A DNA stretch of 63,861 bases, counting the filler, from an uncultured Methanosarcinales archaeon (GTDB lineage: Archaea > Nanobdellota > Nanobdellia > Woesearchaeales > CAYSVS01), in the NCBI GenBank assembly GCA_964434475.1. It is 13 parts of 13 records of this genome, joined end to end, with 100 filler letters (N's around TTAATTAATTAA, not from the genome) between each part and the next. Parts side by side here need not be neighbours in the genome. Positions count along the whole stretch, not along the records: positions 22,279 to 27,282 come from CAYSVS010000076.1; 12 more parts are not named here. The stretch is one strand, 5' to 3'. Shown here piece by piece: positions 11,386-36,678 of this stretch. A model generated the notes under the pieces. It was not told the DNA's origin. It worked only from the letters and a program-made list of their open reading frames with translations, and searched no databases. Position 1 is the first letter of the stretch, and each line of letters opens with the position of its first letter. The position numbers and the translations under genes are program-made.

Positions 11386-11424
11386 TTCTGCAAAATTTAT
11401 TTGATCAAGTTGGTTTATAAATTT
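11371..11424 (+). mobile_element. IS end A, second copy
   Basis: Identical to 5674-5726. Confidence 0.7.
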
Positions 11425-17067: not shown

Positions 17068-17121
17068 GAGAGGCAAACAAGTTTGGCCTAAAAAGTTGTC
17101 CAGCCCAATGGGTCCACCTCA
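17068..17121 (-). mobile_element. IS3-family-like end
   Basis: Minus strand TGAGGTGGACCCATTGGGCTGGACA; 54-nt contig-end stub that interrupts a CDS. Confidence 0.55.
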
Positions 17122-17557
17122 CCGGCTGCTTAGGATTAAATTCATAGCCCAAAGCAGCAAAGGGAAATATATAAGGAGGAAATATACCAATAGCTCCAAT
17201 TCCCCAATAAAAAAAATTATTTTTCTTATAAAAAGGATAATTTAAATAAAATATTTTAAAAAATGGTATCACTAAACCAAAAGGAAAAGCATTAATAGAA
17301 AAATCAAACCCATGTTGCTTTTTGTGAGTACGATATCCTATACCAGCTGTAGGAAAAAAACCCTTATATCTCCAATGGCGGCTCCAAAACCCAAAAGTTG
17401 AAGCTTGAATATATAACATGCTATATCTTGTCTCGGCCTCAACCTTATCAGGGCTTAAAAGATCGATTTCTTGAACTTCTTCTATTATTTGTTGTTGATT
17501 TTCCTGAGAAAAAAGCAAAGCAATGGGAATAAATAAAATTAAAATCTTTTTAAACAT
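17122..17557 (-). CDS. Secreted/outer-membrane beta-rich protein, truncated by the IS end
   Basis: Signal peptide; AGIGYR..HGFDFS, FYWGIG, ALGYEF amphipathic strands. Confidence 0.55.
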
Positions 17558-17752
17558 GCAAATGTTTTGTGAATTATTTTTTAAAAAATTTAATTAAATA
17601 AACATTATACATTATAAGAAAAATAAAACAAATAAATCTATTAAATCTTATGATTTACAGAAAAACATTTAATTATTTTTTAATTAACTAACATATTTTT
17701 ATTTCAATATAAATTAAACAAGATATGTTTTACTAAAAAAAACAATTTTACA

Positions 17753-19081
17753 TTACGCTTTAATTACATTAAAAAGTATTAACATTTCATCAATTTCTTT
17801 TTGTAAATCTAATACTGGTTCTAATTTTTCTACTCTTAAAATATAATTCGATAACGGAGAAGTTCCATATTCTCTTACCCATTGAATAATTGCTCTGGCT
17901 TCATAAATATTACCCGATATTGGATCTCTTAAAGGATGTCTAATAGGACTCAAAGTAATAGGACAAATATATTGTGCAAAAAAATCATCATCGTCTAATT
18001 CTTCTGGGATGAAATCTATGCATTGTTTTATTTCACAAGAAGCAGACTCAGTTTGTATCAGTTTATGCCTTGGATGTTCTTGCCTATATTTTTTACAAAA
18101 CCCAGCATACCGATCATATAACTCTTCTTTCGGAAACTCAATTCCGACTTTTTTACAAAAAAGTTGTATTTTTAAACGTAAAAGACCTGTTTGAATAATT
18201 TGTTGAAAAAATCTATTTTCCTGATAGATTTCTGTCTGTTCCTTAAAATTATTTCGTGCAAGCATATTTAATATAGCTTTTTTCTCATAAATATATTCAC
18301 TACCGATTTCTTGATAAGGTTCTTGAATAAGCTGATTTGTAATAGGACAAAAATATTGACCAAGAACAGCATCTTCACGCGCACAATTAGGCACTTTATT
18401 TTGAGTTAATAGCTGATACAAATCATCTTCTTTTAATTGTGGACATCTTTGAGCTATTACAAATATAATTTGTTGAAGATTTTGTTCAAAATCAAGAAAA
18501 TCTTCCTCAAATGTTTTTTTATAATTAAACAGTTTTTGATAAAACAATTGCCAAATATCATTCACAGACATATCAGGATCTAAAAAAGGCAAAATTCTTA
18601 CTGACAAATTAAAAGAAGGAGAGAGACAACTAAATTCTGATAATTGCAATCTTATCGAATGAAACGATAAACAAAAGACAGGAATACTCATGCTAACCAT
18701 TAAAATTCCAAGCCACCCATCTATAATTGTCTTTAAACATACTTGCCATAAAAAGCAAACCGTCGCTGTAGAAAGCCAAAGATTGTTTGGTATCACTACT
18801 GTAAATAAATGATACAAAGGGGGAAAGAAAAGCATTTGGTCGATTATGCGTCTAAAAAACAGCCCTGATAATGCTGTTATTTTAACAACCTGCTCTAATA
18901 ATCCTTCTATTGGCATAGGATCTTGTATTTCAGAAGGATTTTTTAATCGATATGAGATTAAAAATTTCTGAACTTTTCTTTCTACATCCTCTTTTTCTAT
19001 ACCCGAAGGATAAAAGCTGTTAAAAACCTTCGGTACAGCATATGACGCTCCTATAATGGCTAAAGGATATATAAAGCTCAT
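17753..19081 (-). CDS. Protein with two U-box domains, putative E3 ligase effector
   Basis: YFCPITNQLIQEP..YIYEKKAIL and YICPITLSPIRHP..GNIYEARAIIQWV..GTSPLS; hydrophobic N-terminal region. Confidence 0.85.
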   Translation of the reverse strand: MSFIYPLAIIGASYAVPKVFNSFYPSGIEKEDVERKVQKFLISYRLKNPSEIQDPMPIEGLLEQVVKITALSGLFFRRIIDQMLFFPPLYHLFTVVIPNNLWLSTATVCFLWQVCLKTIIDGWLGILMVSMSIPVFCLSFHSIRLQLSEFSCLSPSFNLSVRILPFLDPDMSVNDIWQLFYQKLFNYKKTFEEDFLDFEQNLQQIIFVIAQRCPQLKEDDLYQLLTQNKVPNCAREDAVLGQYFCPITNQLIQEPYQEIGSEYIYEKKAILNMLARNNFKEQTEIYQENRFFQQIIQTGLLRLKIQLFCKKVGIEFPKEELYDRYAGFCKKYRQEHPRHKLIQTESASCEIKQCIDFIPEELDDDDFFAQYICPITLSPIRHPLRDPISGNIYEARAIIQWVREYGTSPLSNYILRVEKLEPVLDLQKEIDEMLILFNVIKA

Positions 19082-19092
19082 GTTTCACCTCT

Positions 19093-20965
19093 TTAAAGAA
19101 CAGGAAACATTATATTTCTAAACATTTTTTTAATTACTAGAAAATACTGCTTTTTAAAGGCATTCAATTGAATGCTTTCGCTTGAATCTTTTTCAAAAGT
19201 GATTAAGACAAAATTTTTTCTTAAAAATTGTTGTTCTCTAATATTAATCGCATGTAAATCATTCGCAGCTAAGTGAGCTTGTATTAAACATTCGCTACTA
19301 ATTAAAAAACCAGGATTATCCTTGTCTTCTGAAAGATATTGCCAATAATGCCCAGTATCAATAATTTCAGTTTGGCAAAAAGCACATACATATCTTTGTC
19401 CTGGATGATTTGTTGCTAATAAATATTGAGCAGATTGATGCTTGAAAAAAACAGACCTTAACATACGTAACAAAATACCATTGATCCATCTTTTTTCATC
19501 CCCCGCTGGTAACTGTGTTTGAACTGCTTCATGAATTACTTCTTCATTTTGACGAACATATTCTTCTACTGTTTTAAAATCATTTAAAGATTGTCCGGAA
19601 GAGGCCATCGGCATTCTATGCACTGCTGTAGGTTCTATAGAACTTGAAGAAGAAGTTGTTCCAATATCATCAGCAACAGAAACTGCAGCTGGTAAAACTT
19701 CTTTTTTAATTAATTTTAAAAAATCAAAAAGAGCATAAAAATATTTTTTTCTAAAATCAGTTAATTTTTGAACTAATTCAGAATCTGTTTCCTTTGTAAT
19801 TAACACGAACTGTCCCTGATGTAATGCTGCCATATTTGTAGTACTAAGACTGTTGGCAAGACACTCGCTACTAATTAATTGGGCTTTTTCTTGAGCTTGC
19901 CATACATGATCAGGTTCAACGACTTCGTTTTGGCAAACTGAACAAACTAGTCTTTGATATTGATTATTAGTATTTAAAATTAATCTTGCTGCATAACTTT
20001 GAAATGCCGCATATCGGGTAACAGCATTTACTTCATCCCATTTTTTACCTTTTTCCTTTTGGCTTCTAAGCATTACCTCTAGATCTGCTACATGTTGAAA
20101 AACAAAATCTTTAATCTTACTAAAAAAAATGGCAAAAGCATCTTCTGTATTAATCGATTGCCCTTCCATTTCAGAAGGAGTTAGATCTTGTTGTGTACGG
20201 CTGTCTCTTAAAAAAGACATTCTATTATAGATTTGCCTTCCTACAACATTAACTAAATCACCTAATAGTTGTTGAACATCAACCAAACTTATTATCGATA
20301 AAGGCTCGTATGCACGTTGAATAAAAAGAGGCATTTTTTGAACAATTTCAGGAAGTATATTTAATTGTAATACAAATTCAGATATAATCAAATGAGCTAA
20401 TTCTACACACTGCTCTTCTGAAAAATCAATTGCAAAATCACTGATAAACCCAGGTACTTTAATTAAAAGAGAAGCTAATTGTTTAATTGTTTGATCGTTC
20501 CCAAAAGCGGCTGTCGCCCCTAAACCAGAAGCTACTACAAAAACAGAACCTCCTGTTAAAAGGAATCCAAAAGCAATAGATTTATTCGTAGGAATTTCAT
20601 CTTGATTAGCTTCAAGATATTCTTCACAAATTTGCTTTGTTTTTAATACTGTGAAAGCACCAGTACTAGCATAATTTAATCCTGTCAACAATTTATTCGC
20701 TGAATCCGCTGAACAAATTACTTTATTGCCTGAAGAAAATAAAGAGACAAATTTTCCTGCTAAAGAAACTGCAGGACCACTAATAGTCGTTACTCCCAAG
20801 AATATCTTGGCGCCCCCCCCCAATTCTATGTATAATAGAAAGATCTGGATTAGTACAAATTTGCCAACCATCTTGAATTGAATTATAACCTGTATAAACT
20901 TGATATATTTTAGTGCCTGTTATACATACAACTTTCGCTCCTGATAACAATGCAATAATCGCCAT
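19093..20965 (-). pseudogene. Putative effector with a duplicated CxxC..SSEC domain, frameshifted at a G9 tract
   Basis: ORFs 20780-20971 and 19093-20871 fuse if the C9 run at 20813-20821 is C8; ATG at 20965 with AAGG RBS. Confidence 0.7.
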
Positions 20966-20976
20966 AATCAACCTTT

Positions 20977-22029
20977 TTAATCCATACCATAAATCGTTAA
21001 CATCTCATCAATTTCAGCTTGTAATTCTGGCATTGGTTGTAAATCTGCTACACGTAACTGTCTACGAGATAATGGTGATGTACCATGAGTTCGGACCCAT
21101 TCTATAATTGCTCTAGCTTCATAAATAGTGTCTGTTAATGGGTCTCTTAAAGGATGCCTAATAGGAGATAATGTAATTGGACAAACATGCTGGTTGAAAA
21201 ATTCATCCTCATCTAATTCTTCGGGGATTGTATCTTCTAAATTTCCCAGCAAAACAAGTAATCTAGCTTCTTGTTCCGGTTGTCTTCTTTGTACTTCATC
21301 TGGTTCTTCAATAATAACAGCAAGGCGCCGCCTTGGACCACGATGAACACGTCTTCGTGCTTGATGTTCTCTTCTGTACTGCGCGCAAAAATCTTCATAC
21401 TGCTGATATAAACTTTTAGCTAGTGGTACACAAGCAACAAATTCTATACTTTTAACTGCAGTTATTGCTCGTTCATGAGGTAATGCTTCTTTTTTTTGAT
21501 GCATAATCTGTCTTTGTAACTCTACAGTCTGCATTGGTTCTCTATCGCATGAAGAATTATAAATAGATTGATGAGGACTGGACAATTTTTGTAATTCGTA
21601 TTGTAATTGTGCGATAGTAGTTTTATAAGGCTCGAGAACTTGAGCGTCATAAAAACTTTCAAACATAGCCAAAGAATGGCAAATAGCTGAACCAATTATA
21701 GATTTAGAATGTTCTGCATCACCTTGTTGGGGAGCTTCTTGCATCAAAGTTATATATTTAATTGCCGAAAAACCATGTGTAGAACCCTTTATAACTTTAA
21801 CAGCTCGTCTTATTTCACCATATTTAGCTGAATCTAGTGCGAGATCAAGGCCATAACAACAAGCTCTGATTGTAGTATTTACTGTATCCATTATTAACAT
21901 TACTTTTAGATCTGTTTTTTGTTGTCTTGTTAAATGGGCAGGTTCATCTTTAAAAGCTAAACCAGCTAAATCTACTAAATCTAATGTTAAAAGAGAAAAA
22001 TCTAAGATTTTATTAACGACAGCAACCAT
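20977..22029 (-). CDS. C-terminal U-box protein, putative E3 ligase effector
   Basis: IPEELDEDEFFNQHVCPITLSPIRHPLRDP..IYEARAIIEWVRTHGTSPLSRRQL. Confidence 0.85.
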   Translation of the reverse strand: MVAVVNKILDFSLLTLDLVDLAGLAFKDEPAHLTRQQKTDLKVMLIMDTVNTTIRACCYGLDLALDSAKYGEIRRAVKVIKGSTHGFSAIKYITLMQEAPQQGDAEHSKSIIGSAICHSLAMFESFYDAQVLEPYKTTIAQLQYELQKLSSPHQSIYNSSCDREPMQTVELQRQIMHQKKEALPHERAITAVKSIEFVACVPLAKSLYQQYEDFCAQYRREHQARRRVHRGPRRRLAVIIEEPDEVQRRQPEQEARLLVLLGNLEDTIPEELDEDEFFNQHVCPITLSPIRHPLRDPLTDTIYEARAIIEWVRTHGTSPLSRRQLRVADLQPMPELQAEIDEMLTIYGMD

Positions 22030-22126
22030 AAATAACCTCTGTAATAAAACTTTATTTAATTATTTATGAGTACATAGTTTAATAATCTTCGACATTTATT
22101 AAAAGAATAAAAATAAATATTTACTT

Positions 22127-22178
22127 TGTACTGGACAAAAATTAATTTTATGAAACATAAACCCCTAATTCTAAGTAA
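22127..22178 (+). mobile_element. Possible IS end (TGTACTGGACAAAA)
   Basis: TGT terminus 52 nt from the contig end; single copy only. Confidence 0.3.
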
Positions 22179-22280: not shown

Positions 22281-22568
22281 AAAATATTCAACAAAGTAAA
22301 AGACAGCAAATTCGAATTAGATGCAGGCGAACTTACAAAAGCAGACATCATCAGCGCAGCGAACGACAACAAATTCAAGCTGCCGCCAGACATCCAATTC
22401 ATAGGAGATGTAATAATCATAACAGCACAAATTGACCAATCTTTCATATATGAATCAGTAAAAGAAGCTTACTACAATAACCGCAGATCAGGCATAAGGA
22501 TAACCTTAGACAAGAATAATACCAAATTCCTTACTTTCGATACATACGATAATATAATATTTAGATAA
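22281..22568 (+). CDS. 3' end of a surface-protein paralogue of 42988-43899 (5' partial, not in ORF track)
   Basis: KIFNKVKDSKFELDAGELTKADIISAANDNKFKLPPDIQFIGD..; first 35 bp identical to 43106-43140 on the minus strand. Confidence 0.75.
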   Translation, partial: KIFNKVKDSKFELDAGELTKADIISAANDNKFKLPPDIQFIGDVIIITAQIDQSFIYESVKEAYYNNRRSGIRITLDKNNTKFLTFDTYDNIIFR

Positions 22569-23860: not shown

Positions 23861-24156
23861 AATAGTATATTAAATAAAGATTATTTATAAAATTAAGTGC
23901 TATATTAATTTATATTTATAACTTTTATCAATCTAGTAAAGTAGAATATGGGGATTGAAAATAAAATTAAAGAAGCAGATAAAGCTTTTGCGAGAAGCAT
24001 AATGAAACTATAAAAGTCTCGCATAGTAAGTTCACAAAAGATTATCGTAGACCTGCAAAAACCTTAGGATACGTTGTCGGCTTAGACATAGTAACCACTT
24101 GCATACTTGCTTATTCCCATGAGATACAGGGAGAACAAGTTGAATACTTACGAAAC

Positions 24157-24393
24157 ATGATGAAAGAGTATGGTGTTTTGAACGGACAAATCATCAAATA
24201 CGGAGTTATAATGCCTGGTATTCTCGGAGGCGGACTTGGTCTGAATATAATCGGAAAAGGCATAGGCTATGCGATGCACAAGATTGCACCAAAAACATTT
24301 AATAAAGACTTTAGCTTGAATTTTGGAAATGGAGGATTATACTTGATCAGCGCAACCATTGACTTACTCAATATCTATAACATAATAAAATAA
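24157..24393 (+). CDS. Small membrane protein, probably the 3' part of a degraded gene starting near 23948
   Basis: Frame is open upstream of the ATG; a short stopped ORF lies at 23948. Confidence 0.35.
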   Translation: MMKEYGVLNGQIIKYGVIMPGILGGGLGLNIIGKGIGYAMHKIAPKTFNKDFSLNFGNGGLYLISATIDLLNIYNIIK

Positions 24394-24476
24394 TCATTAT
24401 CAACCTTTCCTTATTCACTGTTTAAGAATTTAATAAAAAACATGACAAGTTTCAACAATCAAGATTATCTTTGAGA

Positions 24477-26234
24477 TCAAACATAATAATAACTATTAGC
24501 ATTCTTCTGCTCTCTGTCCTTTACACTTCCTGGCTTGTTAGCTCTTGCCATATTACTTTCTGGATCCCTTCTAAAAGTCAGTTCCAGATCACGTAAAAAC
24601 ATACTCATACCATCTTTCATATCAAACGGTCCTTTTGCTACACCAAAACTTGCAGGTTCACCTTCAAAAACCATAAGATGATCGCTCAAGAAATCAATAA
24701 ACAACAAGTCATGATCAACTATCAATGAAGACGTACCTTTATGATCCATAAAATCCTTTATAACTTTAGACACAGCCAATCTTTGCTCTACATCCAAATA
24801 AGCAGATGGCTCATCCATCAAATACAATTTAGCACTTTTCTGCAAGCAATCTGCAATTGCAATCCTTTGTAATTGCCCTCCAGATAATTCACATATCTTC
24901 TTTGTAAACAATGGTTTGATGTTTAACGGCCTTATTATCTGCGCATCATACTTTTGTATCGCATCCTTAAGAACATTCATCACCAATTCTTCAGATTCTG
25001 TGTTTATGTATTGAGGCTTATAGCTGACAGTTGTTTCATCACTAACTTCACCATTGTCAGGTTTATCCACTCCTGCTAATATCTTGACAAAACTTGTCTT
25101 ACCGATACCATTCTCACCTAATATTCCTATTACACTTTTCCTGTTTATTTTCCCTTCTTCTGCCTTAAGCTGAAATTTACCAAGCTTCTTACCTACTTCT
25201 TTCCAAGAAGTCAACAAATCATCTGAAGATGTCTTTTTCTCTCCTGAAGATTCAAACTTGATCGCCTTATCCCTAAATCTCATATTTTCTTCTTTCAAGA
25301 ATCCAGACAAATAAACATTCATTCCCACTCTTGTTGACTTAGGCATAGAAACAATACCGTAACAATCCTCTTTACCATACATTATATGCACCAGATCAGT
25401 CATATAATCCAATATTATCAGATCGTGTTCAATTACTAATATAGATGTATCTTCGTCAGCAAGATCTTTAATAAATTTGCTTACTTTAATCCTTTGCTTT
25501 ACATCTAAATAAGAAGTAGGCTCGTCAAATATATACAGATTAGCTTTTTTCAAAACAGTTGCAGCAATCGCAACCCTTTGCAGCTCACCACCACTTATTT
25601 TAGTTATATCATTATCCAATACATTTGTTAATGATAATTTCTCAGCAATCTCCAGCATATTGCCTTTTTCATCCACTTTATCTAATAATTGCCTGACGTT
25701 TCCACTTGCGTTTTTAGGTATTAAATCCACAGCCTGCGGCTTATATGCAACCTTAATTTCACCTTTCTTAATCTTTTCAAAAAATATCTGAGCTTCTGTG
25801 CCTTTGAAAAATTGTATAAGATCATCATAGCTTGCTTCTTGACCCAGCTTTCCAAAATTAGGCTTTAATACACCAGCCAAAACTTTTATCGCTGTTGATT
25901 TTCCTATCCCATTCTTACCTACAACACCAACAACCTTGCCAAAAATAGGTGTTGGCAAACTATACAAAGCAAAACTATTTTCACCATATCTATGGATAGG
26001 GTCCTGATTCAAAGCTTCGGGTAAATTAATAATGCTAATACACTCTACAGGACATTTGTTTGCACAGATATTACAACCTATACAAAGCTCTTCATTAATT
26101 ACTGGCTTGTTATCTTCACCTATAGTAATACATTCTTTTCCTGTCCTGTTTACAGGGCATGAATTACCGCAGATAAAATTACATCCATTTCCATTTACAC
26201 ATTTTTCCTTATCAATTACTGCAATCCTTGTCAT
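24477..26234 (-). CDS. rli: ABCE1/RLI ribosome recycling ATPase
   Basis: N-terminal Fe-S Cys motifs, two ABC NBDs (GKNGIGKS, ISGGELQR, DEP; GENGIGKT), RANKPGSVKDREQK. Confidence 0.97.
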   Translation of the reverse strand: MTRIAVIDKEKCVNGNGCNFICGNSCPVNRTGKECITIGEDNKPVINEELCIGCNICANKCPVECISIINLPEALNQDPIHRYGENSFALYSLPTPIFGKVVGVVGKNGIGKSTAIKVLAGVLKPNFGKLGQEASYDDLIQFFKGTEAQIFFEKIKKGEIKVAYKPQAVDLIPKNASGNVRQLLDKVDEKGNMLEIAEKLSLTNVLDNDITKISGGELQRVAIAATVLKKANLYIFDEPTSYLDVKQRIKVSKFIKDLADEDTSILVIEHDLIILDYMTDLVHIMYGKEDCYGIVSMPKSTRVGMNVYLSGFLKEENMRFRDKAIKFESSGEKKTSSDDLLTSWKEVGKKLGKFQLKAEEGKINRKSVIGILGENGIGKTSFVKILAGVDKPDNGEVSDETTVSYKPQYINTESEELVMNVLKDAIQKYDAQIIRPLNIKPLFTKKICELSGGQLQRIAIADCLQKSAKLYLMDEPSAYLDVEQRLAVSKVIKDFMDHKGTSSLIVDHDLLFIDFLSDHLMVFEGEPASFGVAKGPFDMKDGMSMFLRDLELTFRRDPESNMARANKPGSVKDREQKNANSYYYV

Positions 26235-26271
26235 AAGAAGTAAAATTTAAAGAGTATTTAAAAAGGTTTTG

Positions 26272-27231
26272 TTAATCTACAAAATCTTCAAGAATTTGTC
26301 TTGTATGTCTGAGTCTTCTTAGCTTTTCCAAAGCCAACTTTTCTATCTGTCTTATCCTTTCTCTTGTAACTCCCAACTTTTCACCTACCTTTTCCAAAGT
26401 TAAGGCATCATTACCATCTAAACCAAACCTATACTCAAGAACTTTTATCTGTCTGGTCGTAAGATTCTTAAACGCTTTATCTAATGTTTTTTTCAAAAAA
26501 TAATTTTCAGAGATTCTATCTGGATCAAAATGGGTTTTATCCTTACATTCAACCAATTCGTGCAGTTCCACATTATTTCCCGCTTGCTGATTTAAACTAG
26601 GTATTAAGTCATAATCCATAACATTCTTCAATAAGTTTACTTTATCAACAGACATTTTAGACTTCTCTGCAAGCTGCTTATTTGTTGGTTTTTCTATGCC
26701 GAATTCTCTTAATTGATGAGAAACCTTATTCAATGTCTTTATCTGTTCATTAATATGATTAGGCACCCTTATGTTTCCTTCATTTAAAGAAATATTTCTC
26801 ATTATAGACTGTCTAATCCAATATACTGCGTATGTTGACAATTTATAACCTAATCCTGGATCAAACTTATCAACAGCTTTCATCAACCCTATATTTCCAT
26901 AACCAAACAAGTCTTCTATCATTATACCTTTTTCTTCTGCTCTAACAAAATATTTTTTTGCAACACTTACAACAAGCCTAAGGTTTGCTGAAACAATCTT
27001 ATCCCTTATGCTTTTATCTTTTGTCCTTTTATACTCTGTACACAAATAAAGCTCTTCCTCTTTATTCATAGGAACACATTTTTCCAAACTTTTGAAATAG
27101 AGATTTGTTGCATTTAATGATCCTTTGCACCTATTTTTGTCAACTATATTTCTCTCAGGATTATCCTTAGATTTATAACAATAATTCATTTTAATCTTAT
27201 CTACAAGATCAGGATTTATTGTTTTGGCTAT
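26272..27231 (-). CDS. Sigma-70 family factor (RpoD/RpoS-like regions 1.2, 2, 3, 4); frame is open up to the IS end
   Basis: ANLRLVVSVAKKY, GNIGLMKAVDKFDP..YKLSTYAVYWIRQSI, IRVP, RFGL..TLEKVG..VTRERIRQIE; 14 more in-frame codons upstream of ATG 27189. Confidence 0.93.
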   Translation of the reverse strand: MAKTINPDLVDKIKMNYCYKSKDNPERNIVDKNRCKGSLNATNLYFKSLEKCVPMNKEEELYLCTEYKRTKDKSIRDKIVSANLRLVVSVAKKYFVRAEEKGIMIEDLFGYGNIGLMKAVDKFDPGLGYKLSTYAVYWIRQSIMRNISLNEGNIRVPNHINEQIKTLNKVSHQLREFGIEKPTNKQLAEKSKMSVDKVNLLKNVMDYDLIPSLNQQAGNNVELHELVECKDKTHFDPDRISENYFLKKTLDKAFKNLTTRQIKVLEYRFGLDGNDALTLEKVGEKLGVTRERIRQIEKLALEKLRRLRHTRQILEDFVD

Positions 27232-27232
27232 A

Positions 27233-27282
27233 GAGAACTTTGCATAATTGCTGTTTAGCTTAGCTTTTTAGATTAATTGCAC
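27233..27282 (+). mobile_element. IS5-like end (GAGAACTTTGCATAATT), partner of the 1-53 stub
   Basis: 15/17 match to GGGAACTTTGCAAAATT, then divergent. Confidence 0.65.
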
Positions 27283-27443
27283 NNNNNNNNNNNNNNNNNN
27301 NNNNNNNNNNNNNNNNNNNNNNNNNNTTAATTAATTAANNNNNNNNNNNNNNNNNNNNNNNNNNNNNNNNNNNNNNNNNNNNTTTGAAAAAGATTTTATT
27401 GAAACATGTCGTACATGTCGTTAAAATTACTATCCTTAAGGTG

Positions 27444-28427
27444 ATGAATATTAAAAGGAAAATTTTAAATGGTTCAATTATTGCAAACATTTTATTATCT
27501 AGCCTATATGGAATGAATAATAAGGAATATTTGATTGATCGTAGTTTTATTGAAAAAAACCAACAAGTTTTATTAAAAAATATGAAAAAAACTGAAACGA
27601 TAGAAGTAGTGTCATACAATCCACAGTGGCCTCAAATTTTTCAGAAAGAACAGGAGCCTATTAGACAAGCTTTAGGCGATAATTGCTTAGCTATTCATCA
27701 TTTTGGGTCGACTTCTATTCCCGGATGTTTTGCCAAGCCTAAAGTTGATATTCTTGTTGTTGTGCATAGTTTGTCAGCTATTAATTCTTCTGCTTTGGAG
27801 AAGATTGGATTTGAAGCGAGATGTGAAGTCATTCCTACCGGAAGATATTTTTCTAAAGAATTTCCTAGGGTACATGTTCATGTTTTTGAAGAAGGGAATC
27901 CTCTTATTGAAAAGAATTTAAAATTTAGAGATTGGTTGCGAGCACATAGAGAAGATAGAGATGAATATTCAGCCCTTAAAAAGAAATTAGCGGCGTTGCA
28001 TAATGATGGAATGAGTTATTGTTATGCTAAATCCGAGTTTGTAAACAAGGTCGTTGAAAAAATGGAAAAACGATTGAATCATGAATTACCCAAAGCAATA
28101 TCAAAGTGGGGATGGAAATTTCATCATCTAGGAATTCCTTATGATGAGCCTTGTGAAGGTGAAACTCATCATGAGCATTTGAAGGTTTATGTTATGGGGT
28201 TTGAAACTAGTCCTTATGGAGTTGAATGGATGAGATTTGAGCCTGATTGTCCTGTTCCTGATATTTTAAGAAAGGTACCACACATTGCATTTGTAGTTGA
28301 TGACTTGGATGAGGCTCTTAATGGTAAAGAGATTGTTCTACCCCCCGGCGAGCCATCTAACGGCATAAGGACTGCAATGATTATTGATGATGGTGCTCTT
28401 ATAGAGCTCATGGAGTTCAAAAAATAA
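27444..28427 (+). CDS. GrpB/UPF0157 nucleotidyltransferase-like domain fused to a VOC/glyoxalase-like domain
   Basis: YNPQWP, HFGSTSIPG..AKPKVDI, FRDWLR; C-terminal FHHLGIP..HIAFVVDDLD..IELME. Confidence 0.8.
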   Translation: MNIKRKILNGSIIANILLSSLYGMNNKEYLIDRSFIEKNQQVLLKNMKKTETIEVVSYNPQWPQIFQKEQEPIRQALGDNCLAIHHFGSTSIPGCFAKPKVDILVVVHSLSAINSSALEKIGFEARCEVIPTGRYFSKEFPRVHVHVFEEGNPLIEKNLKFRDWLRAHREDRDEYSALKKKLAALHNDGMSYCYAKSEFVNKVVEKMEKRLNHELPKAISKWGWKFHHLGIPYDEPCEGETHHEHLKVYVMGFETSPYGVEWMRFEPDCPVPDILRKVPHIAFVVDDLDEALNGKEIVLPPGEPSNGIRTAMIIDDGALIELMEFKK

Positions 28428-28442
28428 CAGGAAGATAAAGTT

Positions 28443-28931
28443 ATGAATATAATTATTCAAAAAGCAACCGAAGAAGATTTTCCTGCAATTTGGGAGATTT
28501 TTCAATTAATCGTTAAGCCGGGGGATACTGTTTCTTTTTCTCCTGAAACATCTTATGAGGAAGCAAAAGAAATTTGGATGGGTGATGGTCATTATGTTTA
28601 TAAGGCGATGTTGGATGATGTGGTTGTTGGTACCTATAATTTTAAACCGAATTTTTCAGGGCTTGGCTCTCATGTTGCAAATGGAAGCTATATGGTTCAT
28701 CCCGATTATCAGGGTAAGAAGATAGGATATCAGATGGTGATTCATTCCATGGAAGAAGCTAAATGTTTAGGATTTAAAGCTATGCAATATAATCTTGTGG
28801 TATCGACAAATATTCCGGCTATTAAATTATATCAAAAAACTGGCTTTAAGATAGTTGGAACGATACCTAAAGCATTTAATCACCTAAAACTTGGTTATGT
28901 AGATGGCTATATAATGTATCGATTTTTATAA
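28443..28931 (+). CDS. GNAT acetyltransferase
   Basis: HVANGSYMVHPDYQGKKIG, VVSTNIPAIKLYQKTGF. Confidence 0.9.
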   Translation: MNIIIQKATEEDFPAIWEIFQLIVKPGDTVSFSPETSYEEAKEIWMGDGHYVYKAMLDDVVVGTYNFKPNFSGLGSHVANGSYMVHPDYQGKKIGYQMVIHSMEEAKCLGFKAMQYNLVVSTNIPAIKLYQKTGFKIVGTIPKAFNHLKLGYVDGYIMYRFL

Positions 28932-29034
28932 AATTTTATGGCCGCCGGTGCGTCGGTCTAAAGCCTGGGGAGCTGCCGGGGTTGCTCGGAGCCACGAACC
29001 AGGAATCCTTCGCCTTTAGGCGAGGGAGGTTCAA
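28930..29034 (+). ncRNA. IS200/IS605 right end with TnpB omega-RNA (reRNA) scaffold remnant; no tnpB gene
   Basis: tnpB-like tail NFMAAGASV*, AAGCCTGGGGAG, GAACCAGGAA, hairpin TCCTTCGCC-TTTA-GGCGAGGGA, terminal TTCAA. Confidence 0.8.
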
Positions 29035-29225
29035 GTTGTTTGCTGTAGTGGTTATTGGGTTGGTTGTTATTGCATTACAAATCTTAGCTAATATAAGATT
29101 ATTGCCGGCCTTTTTTGAAACTTAAAAAATGGTTATGTATGAAAAAATTATCAATCTTTTTCTTGAATTTTTTTTTCATAATAACCTTTAGTTGCTGCAT
29201 TTTTGCCGATGTATAAACAAATTCA

Positions 29226-30428
29226 TTGAGTTTGCCTAATATCCATAAAATAGAAGAAAATAATTCCTCAATTAATGAGGATCAAAACACCATGCAAATT
29301 GATGAAACATTAGCCAGAGTAGGTTATTGGATGTACTATCCTGCGAGGATAGCAGGACATTCTATTGAAAGAGCTACAAGGCCATTTAAATACGGCGAGT
29401 ATGGATATGAAGATACTTTTGAGGCTGAAGTCTTAAAAAGGATTACTTCTTGTTTTGTAGCAATTATTGCTACCCCGGCTACTATCATTTCCTTTCCATT
29501 TGCAAGTTTCTGTCTAACAACTGCTCATTTGCTTCATTCAAACCGAATACAATTTGAAGAAGGAGAAAATGCTCCTAGCTGTAATGGTGATTTTTCCATT
29601 CTCTTTTTAAATGTTTGTTTGCAAGGAGGTCCTTTTTCTGCTCTTACAGGAGGGGTAAGTTCCCTTCATGAAGATTTTGATGAAACATATTCATCAAGGG
29701 TAAGTGCTCTGGTTGATTTTGTTGCAAGTATAGAAGAAGGCCCTGATATTTTATGCTTTTCAGAAGTGCATGATCTGGCTGCAACAGATGAGTTAAAATT
29801 GAAGCTTAAAGAAAAAGGATATTCCTATTTCATTACCGATATTCCTACTCATCCTATTTGTAATAATTCTGGGCTCTTTGTTGCTGCGAAAATGAAAATT
29901 AGTACCCCTCGCTTTGAGCCCTATCCATTAAAAGATCGTTCGAATGTTCACCTAGGAGCTCAACAAGGATGCATTCTCTTTGAAGTAGAAGATACTTTTA
30001 CTGATAAAGTCATCACATTAGCCACAACGCATTTGAATTTTGGAGGAAGAGAAATCGATCACGAATCAAGAACAAGACAACTTAGAGATCATATTTTTGT
30101 AAATCTGCCGCAAGAGAGTGTTTCTTTGCTTGGAGGAGATCTGAATTATAAATATATGCATCGTCTAGATGAGTTGCAAATGCTAACACCAGAAAGAGCA
30201 GTTGTATCTTTACTGGATGAAGAAATTGTCACTACTACAAGGGAATCTTTTGAAACAGGATCGCATATAAGAGGACAAAAGAAATCAAAAGAGGTGATAG
30301 ATGCGGCATTACTTATTAACAATGATGATCAATATGAGTGGAAAGCAGATGTTATTCAGCCTTCCTTAAAGGGGAAGTTTGTTACTGATCATTATGGCAT
30401 ATTGGTTACTGTTAAAAGTAAGCAGTAA
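29226..30428 (+). CDS. EEP-family phosphodiesterase (sphingomyelinase-like) with N-terminal TM segment
   Basis: FLNV, PDILCFSEV, NSGL, TTHL, GGDLN, ID, TDHYGI. Confidence 0.8.
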   Translation: MSLPNIHKIEENNSSINEDQNTMQIDETLARVGYWMYYPARIAGHSIERATRPFKYGEYGYEDTFEAEVLKRITSCFVAIIATPATIISFPFASFCLTTAHLLHSNRIQFEEGENAPSCNGDFSILFLNVCLQGGPFSALTGGVSSLHEDFDETYSSRVSALVDFVASIEEGPDILCFSEVHDLAATDELKLKLKEKGYSYFITDIPTHPICNNSGLFVAAKMKISTPRFEPYPLKDRSNVHLGAQQGCILFEVEDTFTDKVITLATTHLNFGGREIDHESRTRQLRDHIFVNLPQESVSLLGGDLNYKYMHRLDELQMLTPERAVVSLLDEEIVTTTRESFETGSHIRGQKKSKEVIDAALLINNDDQYEWKADVIQPSLKGKFVTDHYGILVTVKSKQ

Positions 30429-30433
30429 GATCG

Positions 30434-31079
30434 TTATCTCCTATTCATCTCTGAATAGTCTAAGTAATTATTTTTGTTTATAAGAAAATAAAAAGTATTA
30501 TTTAGTTCGTAACTTGATGAAACAAACATTTTACCTTCTGATATTTTTTCTTTGTTGTGTTCGAAAGAAAGCATAAGAGTGCTTAAAGATCCTACTGCGG
30601 GGATAAAATAGTATTTATTGTTAAACATTTCTAAATCAGGCATGAAGATATCAGGATTTTGCTCAGGAATTTCAGGCCAAGGGGGCTGAGGCTCTTTATA
30701 ATAAATTGTATAGGGCGTAGTTCCTCATTTAGAACTTGCATAGTAAACACTCCAAAATTCAGTGGTACTATCAATTCCATATGTGCTAGTAGAAAATGTC
30801 TGTCCATTGAGATTTTTTGATCCTTGAATGTTATTTTGAAAGCGTTTTGCTGTATATAATTTCAATGTTCCACCTCCTATACTACTAAGAGAAGAAGCAG
30901 AATCCATATTCAGACGTCCTGGACCAATACTTAAAGGGTGGGGGAATCTATTATCTACAATTAGCGCTACAAGTCCCTTTTGGAGATTTCTTACCCTAGA
31001 AAAACGCAAATTTATATCTGTTCCAGCAAATAATAATAATTCTGATAGGCCAGTTCTCTTAACGGGGGGCAGTATAAAT
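30434..31079 (-). pseudogene. Fragmented gene of unknown function
   Basis: Two collinear ORF pieces separated by a stop and a frameshift. Confidence 0.35.
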
Positions 31080-31131
31080 ACTGTTCTTGATTACGATATT
31101 TTGGTAAATTTTTGTAGACAGAGGCAGTTAA

Positions 31132-32266
31132 ATGAAGCATTTTTTGGTTGTTGTTAGATGCTTTTTTTCGGTCTATGTAATTATTACATGTATCTTTGCT
31201 ATGCTTGCCATTCCTCTTTTTTGTTCTGATCTGGAATCCAAGAATAGCAAAAACGTAAATATATCACGTTACGATAAGGATAAGGAGTTTAAGAAAATGC
31301 TTCCATTAATTTTATTAGAGACTTCTGATGTCGCGGCACAACCATCCGGAGATGCTGTTCGAGCTTTGGGATTTGACCCAGTTTTTCTTTATACCAGTTC
31401 CTGGTATCAAGGAGATACGAAACAACAGATAGAGTCTTTTACTCATTATGCTCTTAAAGAAAACAATATTTCAGCAATCAAGAAGCAGCTTGTTAGAAAT
31501 GGCATACATAAGGTGTCAGGTGTTATATCTACACTGAATGAGGTCTGCTTGGAAAATGCTTATGGTGTAGCTAAAGAGTTGAGAGGTGCAATGATTGATC
31601 CTGCATTAATGGAGATTAATGATAAAGCAAAGTTGTATGAACTTATTCCGGACCACTCACCAGACTCCATTATTTTTAGTGGAAGGTCTTTGCATTTTAA
31701 AGAATTGTTGGAATTTCTCAAACAGCATAAAACTATCATCATTAAACCTGCAATGGGGTTTGCTTCTGAGGGGGTGAGGATTATTGATTCAAAGGATGAT
31801 TTATCGAAAATGAAAAAAGAGTTGGTGCAACTTGCAGAGAGTGGTAAAGATGGAAAATTTATTGCTCAAAAATTTGAGCATGGCAAACTTCTTTTGCTTG
31901 ACGGTTTTGTTAAAGACCAGCAGATAACATTTCTTGGGTTTGCTGCTGAGAACATGATAGGAAAGACTGAAACAGTTTTTGAATTCCCTGTGGATGATCA
32001 AATTCCTGAATTTCACAAAAAAAAGGCGTATGAGGCTACAACAGCAATTATTGAAAGATCTAATTTTCAAAATGGTTATTTTCATGTTCAATTTATAGCT
32101 ACTGCCGATTCTATGAATGTTATCGATCCCAATTTTGGACGTATTGGAGGAGGAGGGTTTGGTCATTTAATATCTATTGCTTATGGCATATCACCTGTTG
32201 AGCTGTATAAGCATATTATTGACTTATCTTTATTCAAAGGAAAATATTGTGTTGAACATCCCTATA
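31132..32266 (+). CDS. ATP-grasp domain protein, 3' truncated
   Basis: NDKAKL, IIKPAMGFASEGV, FIAQKF, GYFHVQF, IDPNFGRIGGG. Confidence 0.8.
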
Positions 32267-32319
32267 GGGCTTGTAGAAACCCCATTTTTTTGATGATTTC
32301 GCAGCTTAAAAATCTATTT
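32267..32319 (+). mobile_element. Probable IS end (GGGCTTGTAGAAACCCC)
   Basis: 53-nt contig-end stub that interrupts a CDS. Confidence 0.4.
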
Positions 32320-32419: not shown

Positions 32420-32471
32420 ATATCAAGTAGATATATAGAGTTTACGTTTTTGCTAATTTTGCAAAGTTCCC
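32420..32471 (-). mobile_element. IS5-like end, identical to 2-53
   Basis: Exact repeat; interrupts a Cys-rich CDS. Confidence 0.7.
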
Positions 32472-32472
32472 T

Positions 32473-33201
32473 AAGCTAAAAACGTGCTCTCAGCTTAGCG
32501 GAACAATCTGTCAATCTAATGAAGATTGCGATGGAACAGGAATGCCCTCAAGTGATGTAGATATATGCTGTTTAGGAAGCTGTGTTGATATTGACCCTTG
32601 CGCAGATATTACTTGTTCTGATAGCTATTATTGTGTCGATGGATCTTGCCAAAAGAAAACATGTGATCAGATGCAGGGAATAATATGCAGTGGAGATACT
32701 GTTTGTTCTGAAGATACAAAAAGTTCTTCAGATACTTCAAACTGTTGTTTAGCAGAATGCATAACAGAGGAGGAAACTTGTCAAACTGATTCTGACTGTG
32801 ATGATGGAGATAGCTCTACTATTGATGTTTGTTATGATGAATTTTCTGGAGATGATTTGTGTGTATCTGTAGACCAATCAGTTCCCTTTGATGAATCTCT
32901 TGCTTTTCAAAATCTTAAGGAATTAAGTAACCTTGCTGATATATGTCCAATAGAAGAAATTACAGAAGCATCTCCTTTTGTATATATGGAAATCACCTAT
33001 GATCAGGCTAAAATCGATAGTTTCAATGAAGATAATCCATATGTTACTGAAATCCCACATGGTTATGCGATGGCAAAAGCATGGATAATTGAATGCACTG
33101 TTGGTTCAGATAGAAAAGCAGAACAGACAAGAATATACCAGACGCCAGGAACAAATTCATATAGGATAAGCTATAGTGGAACTGTCTGGGATGTTACCTG
33201 A
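32473..33201 (+). CDS. Cys-rich repeat surface protein, 5' cut by the IS
   Basis: Frame open from 32473 (KLKTCSQLSGTIC..); repeats TCxQxxGxIC..SSD..CC; CDDGD..TID. Confidence 0.7.
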   Translation, partial: KLKTCSQLSGTICQSNEDCDGTGMPSSDVDICCLGSCVDIDPCADITCSDSYYCVDGSCQKKTCDQMQGIICSGDTVCSEDTKSSSDTSNCCLAECITEEETCQTDSDCDDGDSSTIDVCYDEFSGDDLCVSVDQSVPFDESLAFQNLKELSNLADICPIEEITEASPFVYMEITYDQAKIDSFNEDNPYVTEIPHGYAMAKAWIIECTVGSDRKAEQTRIYQTPGTNSYRISYSGTVWDVT

Positions 33202-33314
33202 TTTTGTTTTAAATCGAATTTATCGCAAAATTAATGTCTATTATAATGAATTTATAAGTAGCATAAAGGTCAAAACAAAAAATTTATTAATTTAAGCATT
33301 AAATTACTTATAAA

Positions 33315-35474
33315 ATGACTTTGATAAAAAATCTAAAATTATTTACTATTTTTTTGAGTGCAATGATTTTAATTTCATTTGTCTATGCTGAAGAATGCAC
33401 AGATGATGATGGGGGAATAAATTTCTATGAGAAAGGTGAAACATGTAGTGATTATGAATTTGGAGAGATGACATGTGCTGTTGACGAATGTCATGATGAT
33501 ACTCGTTTATTTGAGCAAAGATGTTTGGACGGCAAATATCTTAGAACTCTTAATACTGATTGTGAATTTGGTTGTCAGGATGGTGCTTGTATTGAAGCTC
33601 CAGTACCATCGTGTGAAGATAGTGATGGTGGTATCAATTATGAAGTTAAGGGACAGGTCATGTATGAAACACATCCTTATTATGATGTTTGCCGCGATTT
33701 TCAAGGCAAGATATTGATTAAGGAATGGTATTGTGATGATGAAAACATGCTAAAATTCAAAGAGATTGAATGCACAGGTACTTGCGAAGATGGGGCGTGT
33801 TTATCAAAACCTACATACACTTGTACTGAAACAGATAATGGGTATGACATTTATAATGCAGGAGTTACTACTGGAGTATTTGCTCATGATACTTCGGGAA
33901 ACATAAAGGATTATACAGATTATTGTGTTTCTAGTAAACTACTAAGCGAGTCATATTGTCAGGACGGCAGGGTGGAATTTAAACAGGTTGAATGCGAAAA
34001 AGGTTGTACTGGAAGCAATACGCAAGGCAGATGTAATGAAGAAGAAGAGAAAGAATTTGAAGACGAACCTTTTGATGATGATGCAGATTTTCTTTATTTC
34101 TATGCTGAAACTGATTGTAGCCATTGTGTAAGGGCTGAAGATGCAGTTGATAGACTTGAAAAAGAAATTGATTTAAAAAAAATAAGCATTGGTAAGCTAA
34201 CAGATAATAATGATGTCATAGGAGACTCTATAGCCGAAAAATGGAATGTTAAAACTGTGCCAACATTAGTTCATACTTCAACAAAATCCATAAAGTCAGG
34301 TTATATTAGTTATGAAGATTGGAAATCCTGGGTAAATCAGCAGACAAAAACACCTAACTACGATAAAAAAGAAGGTCCGAAGATAAGAGATTTCATGAAC
34401 GTTAATAATGAATACATCTTCAAGACAGATTATATCTATAAAGAGGTATACATAGATGGGAATAAAGTTAATGCGAAAATAAGTCATGCGGGAGGATCTG
34501 TAGGTACAAAATATGTTGTTCAATGCAAGAAAGGTAATACGCTTGAATTACGTTATGAATATCCAGATAATTCTGGAATTGTATTTACAACGTATGATAT
34601 TTCAAAAGCTGGATGTAACTCAAAATCTAAAGAAAATACAGAAAATATAAATGAAAAACTCTTGGCAGATTATTTCTTTTTAAAAGAAGATTCTACTTAT
34701 AATTTTTATTTAAGTCCAACTTTTCAAGGAGTTGATCCTAAACAGATTGGCATTATGGTTTCCTTTTCAGGACATAGATTTGTTTCATCTGAAGGAGAGA
34801 CAAAAAAACAGGAAGTTTTTAGTCAAATTAGCAACGAGCCACATTCTGGAAATAAATGGATAATTAATAAACAATTACATTATGATTCACTTCTCGGAGC
34901 TTATAAAATAAGAGAGTTAACTGAGGATGAATTTAATAATATCTTTGAAGATATTACCATCATACTAAAATATAAAACAGAACAAAATAAAATAGCAAAG
35001 AATATCAAGGATATATTTGTTAAAGAACTAATTAATCCGTCTACTGATGAACCTCTTAATATAAATTCTGAAAAAGATATATGTAAGGGGTGTACTCATG
35101 ATGATGTGTGTTACTCTTTAGGTTATAGAAAAGAAGGTACATTCTGTACTGATAAGCTACATTTTGAATCACAAAAAGATGATAATAATAATTGTTCTAA
35201 TGCATTCGAATGTAAATCAAATATTTGTGAAAAAAATCAATGTGGAAGATACTGCGATGGATGTAAAGATTCAAATAAAAACTGCCATCCATTTGGAATA
35301 AGGGTAGATAATAAATTCTGTAACTTGAATAAAGAATTTGCCGCTCAAAAATCAAATGAAGGTTCTTGTAGTAATAACTATGAATGTATTAGCAATCTAT
35401 GTATCAATAGCAAATGTATTGAACCAAGTTTTCTACAAAAGATTTTAGATTGGTTTAAAAATATATTCGGATAA
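33315..35474 (+). CDS. Secreted Cys-rich repeat protein with an internal thioredoxin-like domain
   Basis: Signal peptide; three CxD(S/T)D(G/N)G-like repeats; YFYAETDCSHC..VKTVPTL; C-terminal CxNxxECxSNxC repeats. Confidence 0.8.
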   Translation: MTLIKNLKLFTIFLSAMILISFVYAEECTDDDGGINFYEKGETCSDYEFGEMTCAVDECHDDTRLFEQRCLDGKYLRTLNTDCEFGCQDGACIEAPVPSCEDSDGGINYEVKGQVMYETHPYYDVCRDFQGKILIKEWYCDDENMLKFKEIECTGTCEDGACLSKPTYTCTETDNGYDIYNAGVTTGVFAHDTSGNIKDYTDYCVSSKLLSESYCQDGRVEFKQVECEKGCTGSNTQGRCNEEEEKEFEDEPFDDDADFLYFYAETDCSHCVRAEDAVDRLEKEIDLKKISIGKLTDNNDVIGDSIAEKWNVKTVPTLVHTSTKSIKSGYISYEDWKSWVNQQTKTPNYDKKEGPKIRDFMNVNNEYIFKTDYIYKEVYIDGNKVNAKISHAGGSVGTKYVVQCKKGNTLELRYEYPDNSGIVFTTYDISKAGCNSKSKENTENINEKLLADYFFLKEDSTYNFYLSPTFQGVDPKQIGIMVSFSGHRFVSSEGETKKQEVFSQISNEPHSGNKWIINKQLHYDSLLGAYKIRELTEDEFNNIFEDITIILKYKTEQNKIAKNIKDIFVKELINPSTDEPLNINSEKDICKGCTHDDVCYSLGYRKEGTFCTDKLHFESQKDDNNNCSNAFECKSNICEKNQCGRYCDGCKDSNKNCHPFGIRVDNKFCNLNKEFAAQKSNEGSCSNNYECISNLCINSKCIEPSFLQKILDWFKNIFG

Positions 35475-35698
35475 TATTTTTCTTTTTTTGTATTTGTCCA
35501 AACCTTAATGTATTTCTAAAACGCTCTTCGAGCTGAATAAAAAACGCCCCTAGACGTACTTGCTAGATGGGGCTTCGCCCTTGAAAAAGGAAACCCCCTA
35601 AACTATAGTCTTGCTTCGCAAGAATTGATTGAAAAGTAAGAATTTTACTCTGCGGACGCAGGTTTTCCGGACTCCGCTTCGCTCGTAACGGAAAACGT

Positions 35699-35816
35699 AT
35701 TTAACAGGGCTTAAAGGGTTCGAAACGACCGCCTTCGGCTATTTTGCCAAGCAAAATTCGTTTCTCTCCCAAATTTTTTCCTGCGGAAAAAACTTCCCTT
35801 AAGCCCGATGTTATAT
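35699..35816 (+). mobile_element. attC-like integron recombination site
   Basis: R'' ATTTAAC, R' GTTATAT, GGGCTTAAAGGG/CCCTTAAGCCC with an unpaired base, nested internal hairpins. Confidence 0.7.
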
Positions 35817-35878
35817 TCAATATTTTTCTGGGGGCTAGAAGAGTAACATTTATATTAACGAATCATTTAATTTAAAAT

Positions 35879-36586: not shown

Positions 36587-36650
36587 CGCCCCCAGAAAAA
36601 TACTCTGAAATTTCCCTTCGGGACGTTGCACTAAATTTCAGCCCTACGGG

Positions 36651-36678
36651 GAATATAACAAGGATCCTGATGTTATAC
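36651..36678 (+). mobile_element. Internally deleted mini attC
   Basis: GAATATAAC-AAGGATCCTGAT-GTTATAC; GAATATAAC is the exact complement of GTTATATTC at the cassette start. Confidence 0.6.

Follow-up and report, generated by a model that had tools for sequence, protein, structure and literature searches.

Sigma factors on the one hand, and the TATA-binding protein (TBP) with transcription factor B (TFB) on the other, are the textbook markers of bacterial and of archaeal transcription start, respectively. Genes for sigma-70 proteins (fam00359) have been reported from DPANN archaea and are said to be "particularly prevalent in Woesearchaeota" (Castelle et al. 2021, Front Microbiol, PMC8204110); in that paper, mis-binning is excluded, anti-sigma factors were not found and the mechanism is called unclear. 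In addition, a more recent study describes two rpoS-like auxiliary genes from DPANN viruses, one of them on a prophage (Nat Commun 2025, PMC12647753). Here, we analyse a sigma-70 family gene, hereafter the window sigma, in a 63,861-base stretch of DNA (the window) from assembly GCA_964434475.1. It is located on a 5004-bp contig (positions 22279–27282), directly upstream of the archaeal core gene ABCE1. The novelty implied in the initial annotation of this locus has to be given up, sigma-70 genes of DPANN archaea and Woesearchaeota being already in print (PMC8204110). We lean, with modest assurance, towards the window gene being one more of the bacterial-type sigma-70 genes scattered through the chromosomes of Woesearchaeota/Nanoarchaeota (DPANN), regulating transcription inside the archaeon. 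The gene itself is real, intact, chromosomal and of the sigma-70 family, and to all appearances it is a long resident.

Like the DPANN sigma-70 genes of PMC8204110, the window gene encodes a full sigma-70 protein among Woesearchaeota-type genes, with no anti-sigma factor nearby. It shares its contig with a taxonomically informative DPANN gene, the Woesearchaeota-like ABCE1, and is a candidate member of fam00359. With 305 amino acids (aa) it is short, whereas N-terminal extensions bring many other archaeal homologues to 430–1741 aa, and in region 2.2 it carries G and Y in place of the Q and E typical of the family. The DPANN viral rpoS-like genes likewise encode divergent relatives of sigma and have a DPANN connection but, according to PMC12647753, they occur on viral contigs or a prophage, whereas the window gene lies beside ABCE1 on a contig without any viral gene. 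With the bacterial group 1/2 sigmas (E. coli RpoD and RpoS; Bacillus/Staphylococcus SigA), the window sigma shares the order of regions (1.2, 2.1–2.4, 3.0–3.2, 4.1–4.2) at 34–43% identity, the fold and the residues for recognition of the −10, extended −10 and −35 elements. It differs from them in the lack of region 1.1, in scoring far below every NCBIfam equivalog cut-off, in its position behind archaeal-type promoter signals and in that bacterial core polymerase was not found in eight related genomes.

Regions 1.2, 2.1–2.4, 3 and 4.2 had been recognised from the sequence alone in the open reading frame (ORF), and Pfam, the alignment with RpoD, structure prediction and Foldseek bear this out. 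The Pfam models for regions 2 and 4 are passed with ease, while that for region 3 stays under its cut-off (Table 1); the region 1.2 model PF00140 is not reached by the 305-aa protein. The sigma-3 domain is nonetheless present between sigma-2 and sigma-4, as seen in the alignment, the AlphaFold2 model and the Foldseek matches. Region 1.1 (PF03979) gives no match, only some 25 residues preceding region 1.2, which are disordered in the model. Among solved structures, E. coli RpoD can be aligned with the window sigma over residues 370–612 without interruption (E 1e-45); RpoD entries match with E values of 1e-45 to 1e-47, and SigA, RpoS and further primary-like sigmas also align. The AlphaFold2 model (35 sequences) has a mean predicted local distance difference test score (pLDDT) of 86. 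The helices of sigma-2, sigma-3 and sigma-4 are confident, those of sigma-3 (residues 144–192) at pLDDT 83–98, and the first ~20 residues are disordered. All 50 matches listed by Foldseek against the PDB are entries containing sigma factors, and the matches to sigma chains span 250–330 alignment columns.

At NCBIfam, the superfamily model TIGR02937 alone was passed (106.6 bits; cut-off 42.9). The RpoD, RpoS and MzaA models scored 187–229 bits against cut-offs of 354–800: the RpoD equivalogs NF004208 (215 vs. 555), TIGR02393 (203 vs. 354) and NF006666 (197 vs. 572) failed, as did the RpoS equivalogs TIGR02394 (195 vs. 378.7) and NF004207 (186.7 vs. 394). Because both equivalog tests failed and region 1.1 is lacking, we file the protein, which comprises regions 1.2 to 4.2, at the level of the sigma-70 family only. 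The best-scoring NCBIfam and PADLOC model is that of MzaA from the MZA anti-phage system (NF041931; PDLC02203), by way of its C-terminal sigma part: 228.8 bits against a cut-off of 800, with model positions 472–715 of 726 matched and the first 430–470 positions of the MzaA models unmatched. We rejected identity with MzaA, since only the sigma part matches and the partners MzaB–E are not on the contig (PADLOC). Scans of the contig with defence-system and viral models gave only generic sigma and ATPase matches.

To examine the residues kept and changed, the window sigma and 44 archaeal homologues were mapped to E. coli sigma-70 numbering, at positions which we take, from the bacterial literature, to be those for promoter reading, melting and core binding. 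The window sigma keeps N383 and, in region 2.2, D403, N409 and M413. The melting and −12/−11 reading positions Y430, W434, R436, Q437 and R441 are kept, as are the extended −10 positions R451, H455 and E458 (the latter two being H145 and E148 of the window sigma), the −35 reading positions R584, E585, R586, R588 and Q589 (R276, E277, R278, R280 and Q281), and R554, R562, L573 and E574. In its own numbering, D93, N99, M103, Y120, W124, Q127 and R131 are present in the sigma-2 domain, G96 and Y97 being the odd ones. The differences are I405F, Q406G, E407Y, F427L, T432V, W433Y, T440M, R448G, K593L and R596E. The positions that the window sigma keeps are conserved in 25–42 of the 44 archaeal rows, at an overall identity to the window sigma of ~33%; Y430 is retained in 41 rows, W434 in 38, Q437 in 39, E585 in 39 and R588 in 40. 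Since key residues are conserved among copies that share about one third of their residues, this pattern argues for purifying selection on sigma-like work, that is, on DNA reading and melting, and not on a bare helix-turn-helix.

The suggestion to look for other archaeal homologues proved fruitful. We sampled 400 genomes of the phylum to which a related metagenome-assembled genome (MAG; G002) belongs. A homologue (E ≤ 1e-5) is present in 139 of them, or in 136 of 397 when the unpublished genomes G335, G245 and G246 are left out. Many of these archaeal copies lie on contigs of hundreds of kb, up to 1.47 Mb, and tandem arrays occur, e.g., of four genes in G200 and of three in G156. As a control, Pfam Sigma70_r2 matched in 10 bacterial genomes and in none of the four others (archaea). 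In a Pfam survey of 14 sigma loci, four of which have no diagnostic neighbour, the sigma genes were found in the company of archaeal core genes, namely those for proteasome alpha, SBDS, exosome and deoxyhypusine synthase; L21e and Rpo4; SecY, L34e and L19e; L15e; diphthamide synthase; and Hel308 and ATP-dependent DNA ligase.

Long sigma genes among these relatives show further features. Those of G200 (L200; G200:C3 10025–13169) and G015 (L202; G015:C3 6380–8731) are directly preceded by ORFs of 765–784 aa without a Pfam family, the one in G200 also by an ORF of 287 aa; the matching upstream position on the window contig is cut off by a repeat. In L204 (G313:C5, 816–6038), an ORF of 1741 aa has a complete sigma module (regions 1.2–4) at its C-terminus, with ~1450 residues without a Pfam match ahead of it.

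The initial annotation had inferred that the protein has no cognate core enzyme here, and the related genomes are in line with this. The bacterial β′ subunit (TIGR02386) exceeded its cut-off in none of eight related genomes (five sigma-bearing genomes plus G001, G002 and G005, all incomplete MAGs and none of them the window's own genome), as against all 10 bacterial controls. Only the split archaeal Rpo1N/Rpo1C was seen in the eight. As these genomes are incomplete, bacterial polymerase is to be called not found in them, rather than absent.

Within the family, the window sigma stands apart: it is a singleton, and its closest matches among 5.8 billion proteins are bacterial, RpoD-type and 38–44% identical (best 201 bits). 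The best 80 loci in genome_contigs are all bacterial by title (36–46% identity). Identity is at most 41.5% (median 33%) to the sampled archaeal copies and at most 42.8% (median 41%) to a thinned bacterial set. The check for a high-identity bacterial relative thus returned none, the best standing at 44%. We inferred a quick maximum likelihood tree of 71 rows, namely the window sigma, 44 archaeal sequences (thinned from 45 at 97% identity), 23 bacterial ones (from 191 at 72%; these are best matches, biased towards Bacillota) and E. coli RpoD, RpoS and RpoH, without FliA, which did not pass the coverage filter, and without the unpublished L151. A DPANN clade, as had been anticipated, is neither borne out nor contradicted: the tree scatters the archaeal copies, with seven changes between archaeal and bacterial labels of which at least three are forced by starred branches, while a single archaeal clade is not rejected by the approximately unbiased (AU) test (delta log-likelihood 30.9, p 0.215).

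From these comparisons, the window sigma is not a recent transfer from any sampled bacterium. It is a fast-evolving orphan and a long resident, as its best identity is only 44% and its composition fits that of its neighbours: the G+C content at third codon positions (GC3) is 0.26, vs. 0.28 for ABCE1, and relative synonymous codon usage (RSCU) correlates at 0.89 with that of the window's archaeal marker genes, although the test is weak, since correlations of 0.44–0.81 are obtained even for those window contigs whose origin is doubtful. The frame of 305 codons stays open in DNA of 31% G+C.

An assembly or binning artefact, in which bacterial DNA was misjoined to an archaeal ABCE1, might seem to be invited by the non-archaeal-looking contigs in the window (e.g., those with U-box, beta-lactamase and galactose genes) and by the fact that a single run contains the contig. 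That run, a public microbial mat metagenome that is probably the source, holds 99% of the contig's sampled words; it was the sole match in the public-run search, a DNA run, and no RNA run was listed. In the Logan assembly of this run, made by another assembler from identical reads and thus not an independent sample, a 1954-nt contig covers 25304–27257 with no differences at a depth of 9.1 and bridges the ABCE1–sigma junction, and a second contig covers 22304–25296 at a depth of 10.1. The chimeric junction that had been proposed as a check is therefore not seen, depth being even across it. ABCE1 shares 55–66% identity with its counterparts in 12 MAGs that carry the title Woesearchaeota, Nanoarchaeota or "archaeon", so the placement of a bacterial-type sigma gene on an archaeal contig holds: the contig is no chimera and it is archaeal (Woesearchaeote). 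With no bacterial sigma closer than 44% and homologues on archaeal contigs that reach 1.47 Mb as further counter-evidence, we regard such an artefact as scarcely credible.

The sigma stop codon (TAA, 26272–26274) is separated by 37 bp from the ABCE1 start (ATG, 26234–26232). The initial annotation had claimed a B recognition element (BRE) and a TATA box for this spacer, and rightly so: a BRE-like AAAACC (26265–26270) precedes a TATA-type TTTTTAAATA (26255–26264), located 30–21 nt before the ABCE1 ATG. In all 11 of the closest ABCE1 loci examined (L081–L090 and L092; L091 was left out), a T-rich TATA-type box starts ~30–33 nt before the ATG, e.g., TTTAAAAA, TTTATAAA and TTTATTAA, usually preceded by an A/C-rich stretch, though the upstream genes vary. 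Furthermore, we pooled 191 genes from 16 related loci and from those contigs of the window that look archaeal. In 51 of these genes, a TTTWWAW motif starts at −36 to −26, vs. 21 in a control window; 66 starts fall in the two 5-nt bins from −35 to −26 and 1–21 in the other bins. Because the box is conserved at all 11 loci and coincides with the positional peak in the 191 genes, the spacer contains a conserved archaeal promoter that belongs to ABCE1, at a distance that suits leaderless or short-leader mRNA. The sigma gene may have a promoter box of its own, AAAACAATAAAT, weaker than that of ABCE1.

No special meaning attaches to the adjacency of the two genes. A sigma homologue occurs within 5 kb of ABCE1 at one of 28 archaeal ABCE1 loci (L091), downstream, on the other strand and with 29% identity, while ABCE1 has its own conserved promoter; the weight that had been given to the neighbourhood is not upheld, and the adjacency is incidental, an accident of gene order. 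A tblastn search with the 229-aa protein and the PHP protein encoded on the same contig gave no match at the 28 loci (flanks up to 5 kb).

At its upstream side, the sigma gene abuts the contig end. The last 50 nt (27233–27282) occur in a Logan contig with a depth of 292, compared to ~9–10 for the rest, and several different sequences join at 27228–27229 (Logan loose ends); depth and loose ends together identify the edge of a high-copy repeat. Insertion sequence (IS) ends shared with the contig carrying eS1 and gyrB had been claimed here. The repeat edge is real, and a stretch around TGCAAAGTTCYCT, 18 of 21 nt, is common to the ends of the eS1/gyrB contig (1–5726) and of contig 32420–37032 at the same offset, a score reached by none of 2000 shuffles; the outer 32 nt differ, however, and no transposase was seen. 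An IS end is thus plausible. Elsewhere in the window, contig ends match each other exactly over 49–53 nt (2–54 and 32420–32472; 5674–5726 and 11371–11423; 46334–46385, 50926–50977 and the reverse of 5827–5875). All of these shared sequences contain a TTGCA(A/G)A(A/G)TT-like core, and they are probably the termini of one or more repeat families where the assembly breaks.

Upstream of the sigma ATG, the frame is open for 14 codons to the repeat boundary near 27232, as had been stated, and for 26 codons in all, to an in-frame TAA (27268–27270), with no alternative start codon in between. The suspicion that an N-terminal extension was lost is not sustained and such a loss is unlikely: short archaeal homologues (276–297 aa) have the same layout, beginning 3–30 residues before region 1.2, and the window sigma begins 25 residues before it. 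As the short homologues start at a similar distance, a lost extension is not needed to explain the gene.

The repeat raises the alternative that the gene is cargo of a virus, a provirus or another mobile element, like the DPANN viral "rpoS" genes. Besides the sigma gene abutting a high-copy repeat end, the two published viral genes (PMC12647753) and the best PHROG match, the phage sigma factor phrog_351 (216 bits), fit this origin. The adjoining gene is the core gene ABCE1, however; Pfam and PHROG scans of the contig found no virion, integrase or transposase families, sigma genes sit among housekeeping genes at the 14 related loci, and all 295 matched phage records are under 60% identical. We consider mobile cargo very unlikely.

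As for function, our preferred reading of a sigma that regulates transcription inside the archaeon would involve the following steps. The protein would be made from an archaeal promoter and act as a sequence-specific transcription regulator, with sigma-4 and sigma-2 predicted to bind −35/−10-like DNA. In the cell's own Rpo1N, sigma-2 would dock on the clamp coiled-coil, which is homologous to the β′ clamp helices of bacteria, and at some promoters initiation would thereby be directed or prevented. Docking on this archaeal coiled-coil would be, in our view, the most likely step, though at less than even odds for the family and lower ones for the window copy. Complex prediction with sigma residues 26–140 and Rpo1N residues 60–420 gave 0.26 against a mark of 0.32, with Rpo1N as a stand-in from G002 and without controls, and so counts neither for nor against docking. 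That the sigma binds DNA without contacting polymerase is a lesser possibility. A bolder version, which we deem unlikely, is that Woesearchaeota sigmas, docking through region 2 on the archaeal clamp, would enable the cell to recognise and melt promoters in a bacterial manner as well as by TBP/TFB, i.e., hybrid initiation. It would explain why the melting and hexamer-reading residues are near-invariant in divergent copies, in genomes where no bacterial polymerase was found.

Alternatively, as the initial annotation had suggested besides a repurposed regulator, an archaeon living on or beside bacteria could pass the sigma over to them, as an effector that redirects transcription by their RNA polymerase. 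The −35/−10 reading and melting residues, which match those of bacterial housekeeping sigmas, would suit such a role, as would the eight related genomes in which bacterial polymerase was not found. Inspection of the N-terminus by eye shows no hydrophobic signal sequence, though, Pfam, PHROG and PADLOC scans found no transfer system on the contig, and two core-binding positions are changed in the window copy. The known hosts of cultured DPANN archaea are themselves archaea. We judge an effector on bacterial polymerase highly improbable.

Several observations weigh against a working regulator, and with it against the reading that we prefer. The branch of the window sigma is 2.3 changes per column long and has no supported sister. 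I405F, Q406G, E407Y, W433Y, T440M and R448G depart from the consensus; Q406 and E407, which we take to be core-binding, among the residues that contact the β′ clamp helices, are retained in 33 and 37 of the 44 archaeal rows, respectively, and with Q406G and E407Y the polymerase contact of the window sigma may be altered or lost. The repeat boundary reduces the native region upstream of the sigma ATG to 43 nt. Sigma-70-type promoter-like sites are not enriched on the contig (28, vs. 24.6 ± 4.8 in shuffles). The window copy has no close relative, archaeal pairs are saturated for the ratio of nonsynonymous to synonymous substitution rates (dN/dS), and we found no experimental test or expression data for any DPANN sigma in the open-access literature. 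The weakness of the codon-usage test and the limits of the β′ survey, as given above, belong here as well.

The same long branch and lack of a sister, the singleton cluster with ≤44% identity to anything, the changes Q406G, E407Y and W433Y, and the repeat boundary at 43 nt from the ATG would also suit a relic in decay or without function, i.e., a sigma gene acquired long ago that drifts without a partner and whose upstream region was removed by the repeat insertion. Against a relic stand the 305-codon frame, open at 31% G+C, and the ~19 function-critical residues that are retained. Its three domains are predicted to fold confidently (AlphaFold2), its codon usage matches that of the host and a TATA-like box stands at the usual distance. 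We therefore think a relic quite unlikely and return to a sigma that regulates transcription inside the archaeon as the preferred reading.

Table 1. Coordinates of the features of the sigma contig, in positions of the window.
Feature	Position	Strand	Basis or remark
Gene for a primary-like (group 1/2 type) sigma-70 family protein of 305 aa that lacks region 1.1	26272..27189	-	Pfam, NCBIfam, PDB alignment, AlphaFold2, Foldseek
Region 1.2-like helices, residues ~27–56	27022..27111	-	Alignment to archaeal and bacterial homologues; AlphaFold2 helices 21–36 and 43–56
Sigma-2 domain (regions 2.1–2.4), residues 66–133	26791..26994	-	Sigma70_r2 (PF04542), 54.1 bits (cut-off 24)
Sigma-3 domain, residues ~144–192	26614..26760	-	Sigma70_r3 (PF04539), 20.7 bits, under cut-off (25.3); continuous RpoD alignment; AlphaFold2 helices 144–192
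Sigma-4 domain, residues 239–291, helix-turn-helix T275-R-E-R-I-R-Q281	26317..26475	-	Sigma70_r4 (PF04545), 55.9 bits (cut-off 24.1)
Spacer of 37 bp, sigma stop to ABCE1 start	26235..26271	-	Reads C-AAAACC-TTTTTAAATA-N20-ATG
Candidate TATA-like box of the sigma gene, AAAACAATAAAT, 36–25 nt before the ATG	27214..27225	-	Position fits the 191-gene peak
ABCE1/RLI gene, 585 aa, archaeal core gene	24477..26234	-	NF009945, 812 bits (cut-off 469)
Hypothetical protein, 229 aa	23171..23860	-	No Pfam or NCBIfam match at threshold; weak phrog_27360 only
PHP-domain metallophosphoesterase, 202 aa	22561..23169	-	PF02811, PF13263
High-copy repeat end (possible IS or other repeat terminus), contig end	27233..27282		Logan depth, loose ends, shared motif

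The window is not a single molecule: about 13 contigs of 3.9–5.7 kb, together with a piece of 70 nt, are strung together by means of N44-TTAATTAATTAA-N44 linkers, and the order of genes on either side of a linker is meaningless. On the sigma contig, every sizeable gene is on the minus strand (Table 1). G196 likewise has a PHP gene, two genes away from its sigma. With only 29% identity between both PHP proteins, we treated this linkage as due to chance. In the 616 nt that separate the 229-aa gene from the stop of ABCE1 (23861–24476), the only ORF is on the other strand (24157–24393) and encodes a glycine-rich polypeptide of 78 aa; neither a protein-family nor an Rfam match was obtained for this region. 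Rfam gave no match on the whole sigma contig, and no tRNA was found in the window. The first 167-nt bin of the contig (22279–22445) has a depth of 32.8, compared to 10 elsewhere, and 65 nt of it (22281–22345) recur at 43076–43140 with 92% identity, the match behind the paralogous gene that had been noted on a second contig; the contig start is a fragment of a multi-copy gene.

Other contigs of the window differ in character. The large ORFs of contig 17068–22178, three in number (442, 592 and 350 aa), are paralogous; zf-Nse/MIZ and U-box domains (E3 ligase-like) are present in one of them, and the contig also has internal repeats (17850–18017 and 21068–21235). Its GC3 of 0.17–0.19 is below that of the archaeal marker genes, and it may represent DNA of another organism or a eukaryote-like effector family. 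Contigs 27383–32319, 55581–59885 and 59986–63861 carry GrpB, GNAT, endonuclease/exonuclease/phosphatase, beta-lactamase-family, galactokinase, aldose epimerase and GH127 genes and no archaeal marker; judging from such marker-less contigs, the bin may be mixed. A 250-nt sequence at the end of the GNAT gene (28680–28929) recurs with 99.2% identity at the end of the beta-lactamase contig (59588–59837), as either an unmerged assembler overlap or a strain variant.

That about one third of the sampled genomes from the Woesearchaeota phylum keep sigma genes with intact promoter-reading and melting residues, yet appear to be without a bacterial polymerase, is a real puzzle. The window copy adds little to the published record, being a further instance that is unusually divergent and altered at core-binding positions. 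Its main use would be as an extra natural variant for studying what DPANN sigmas bind.

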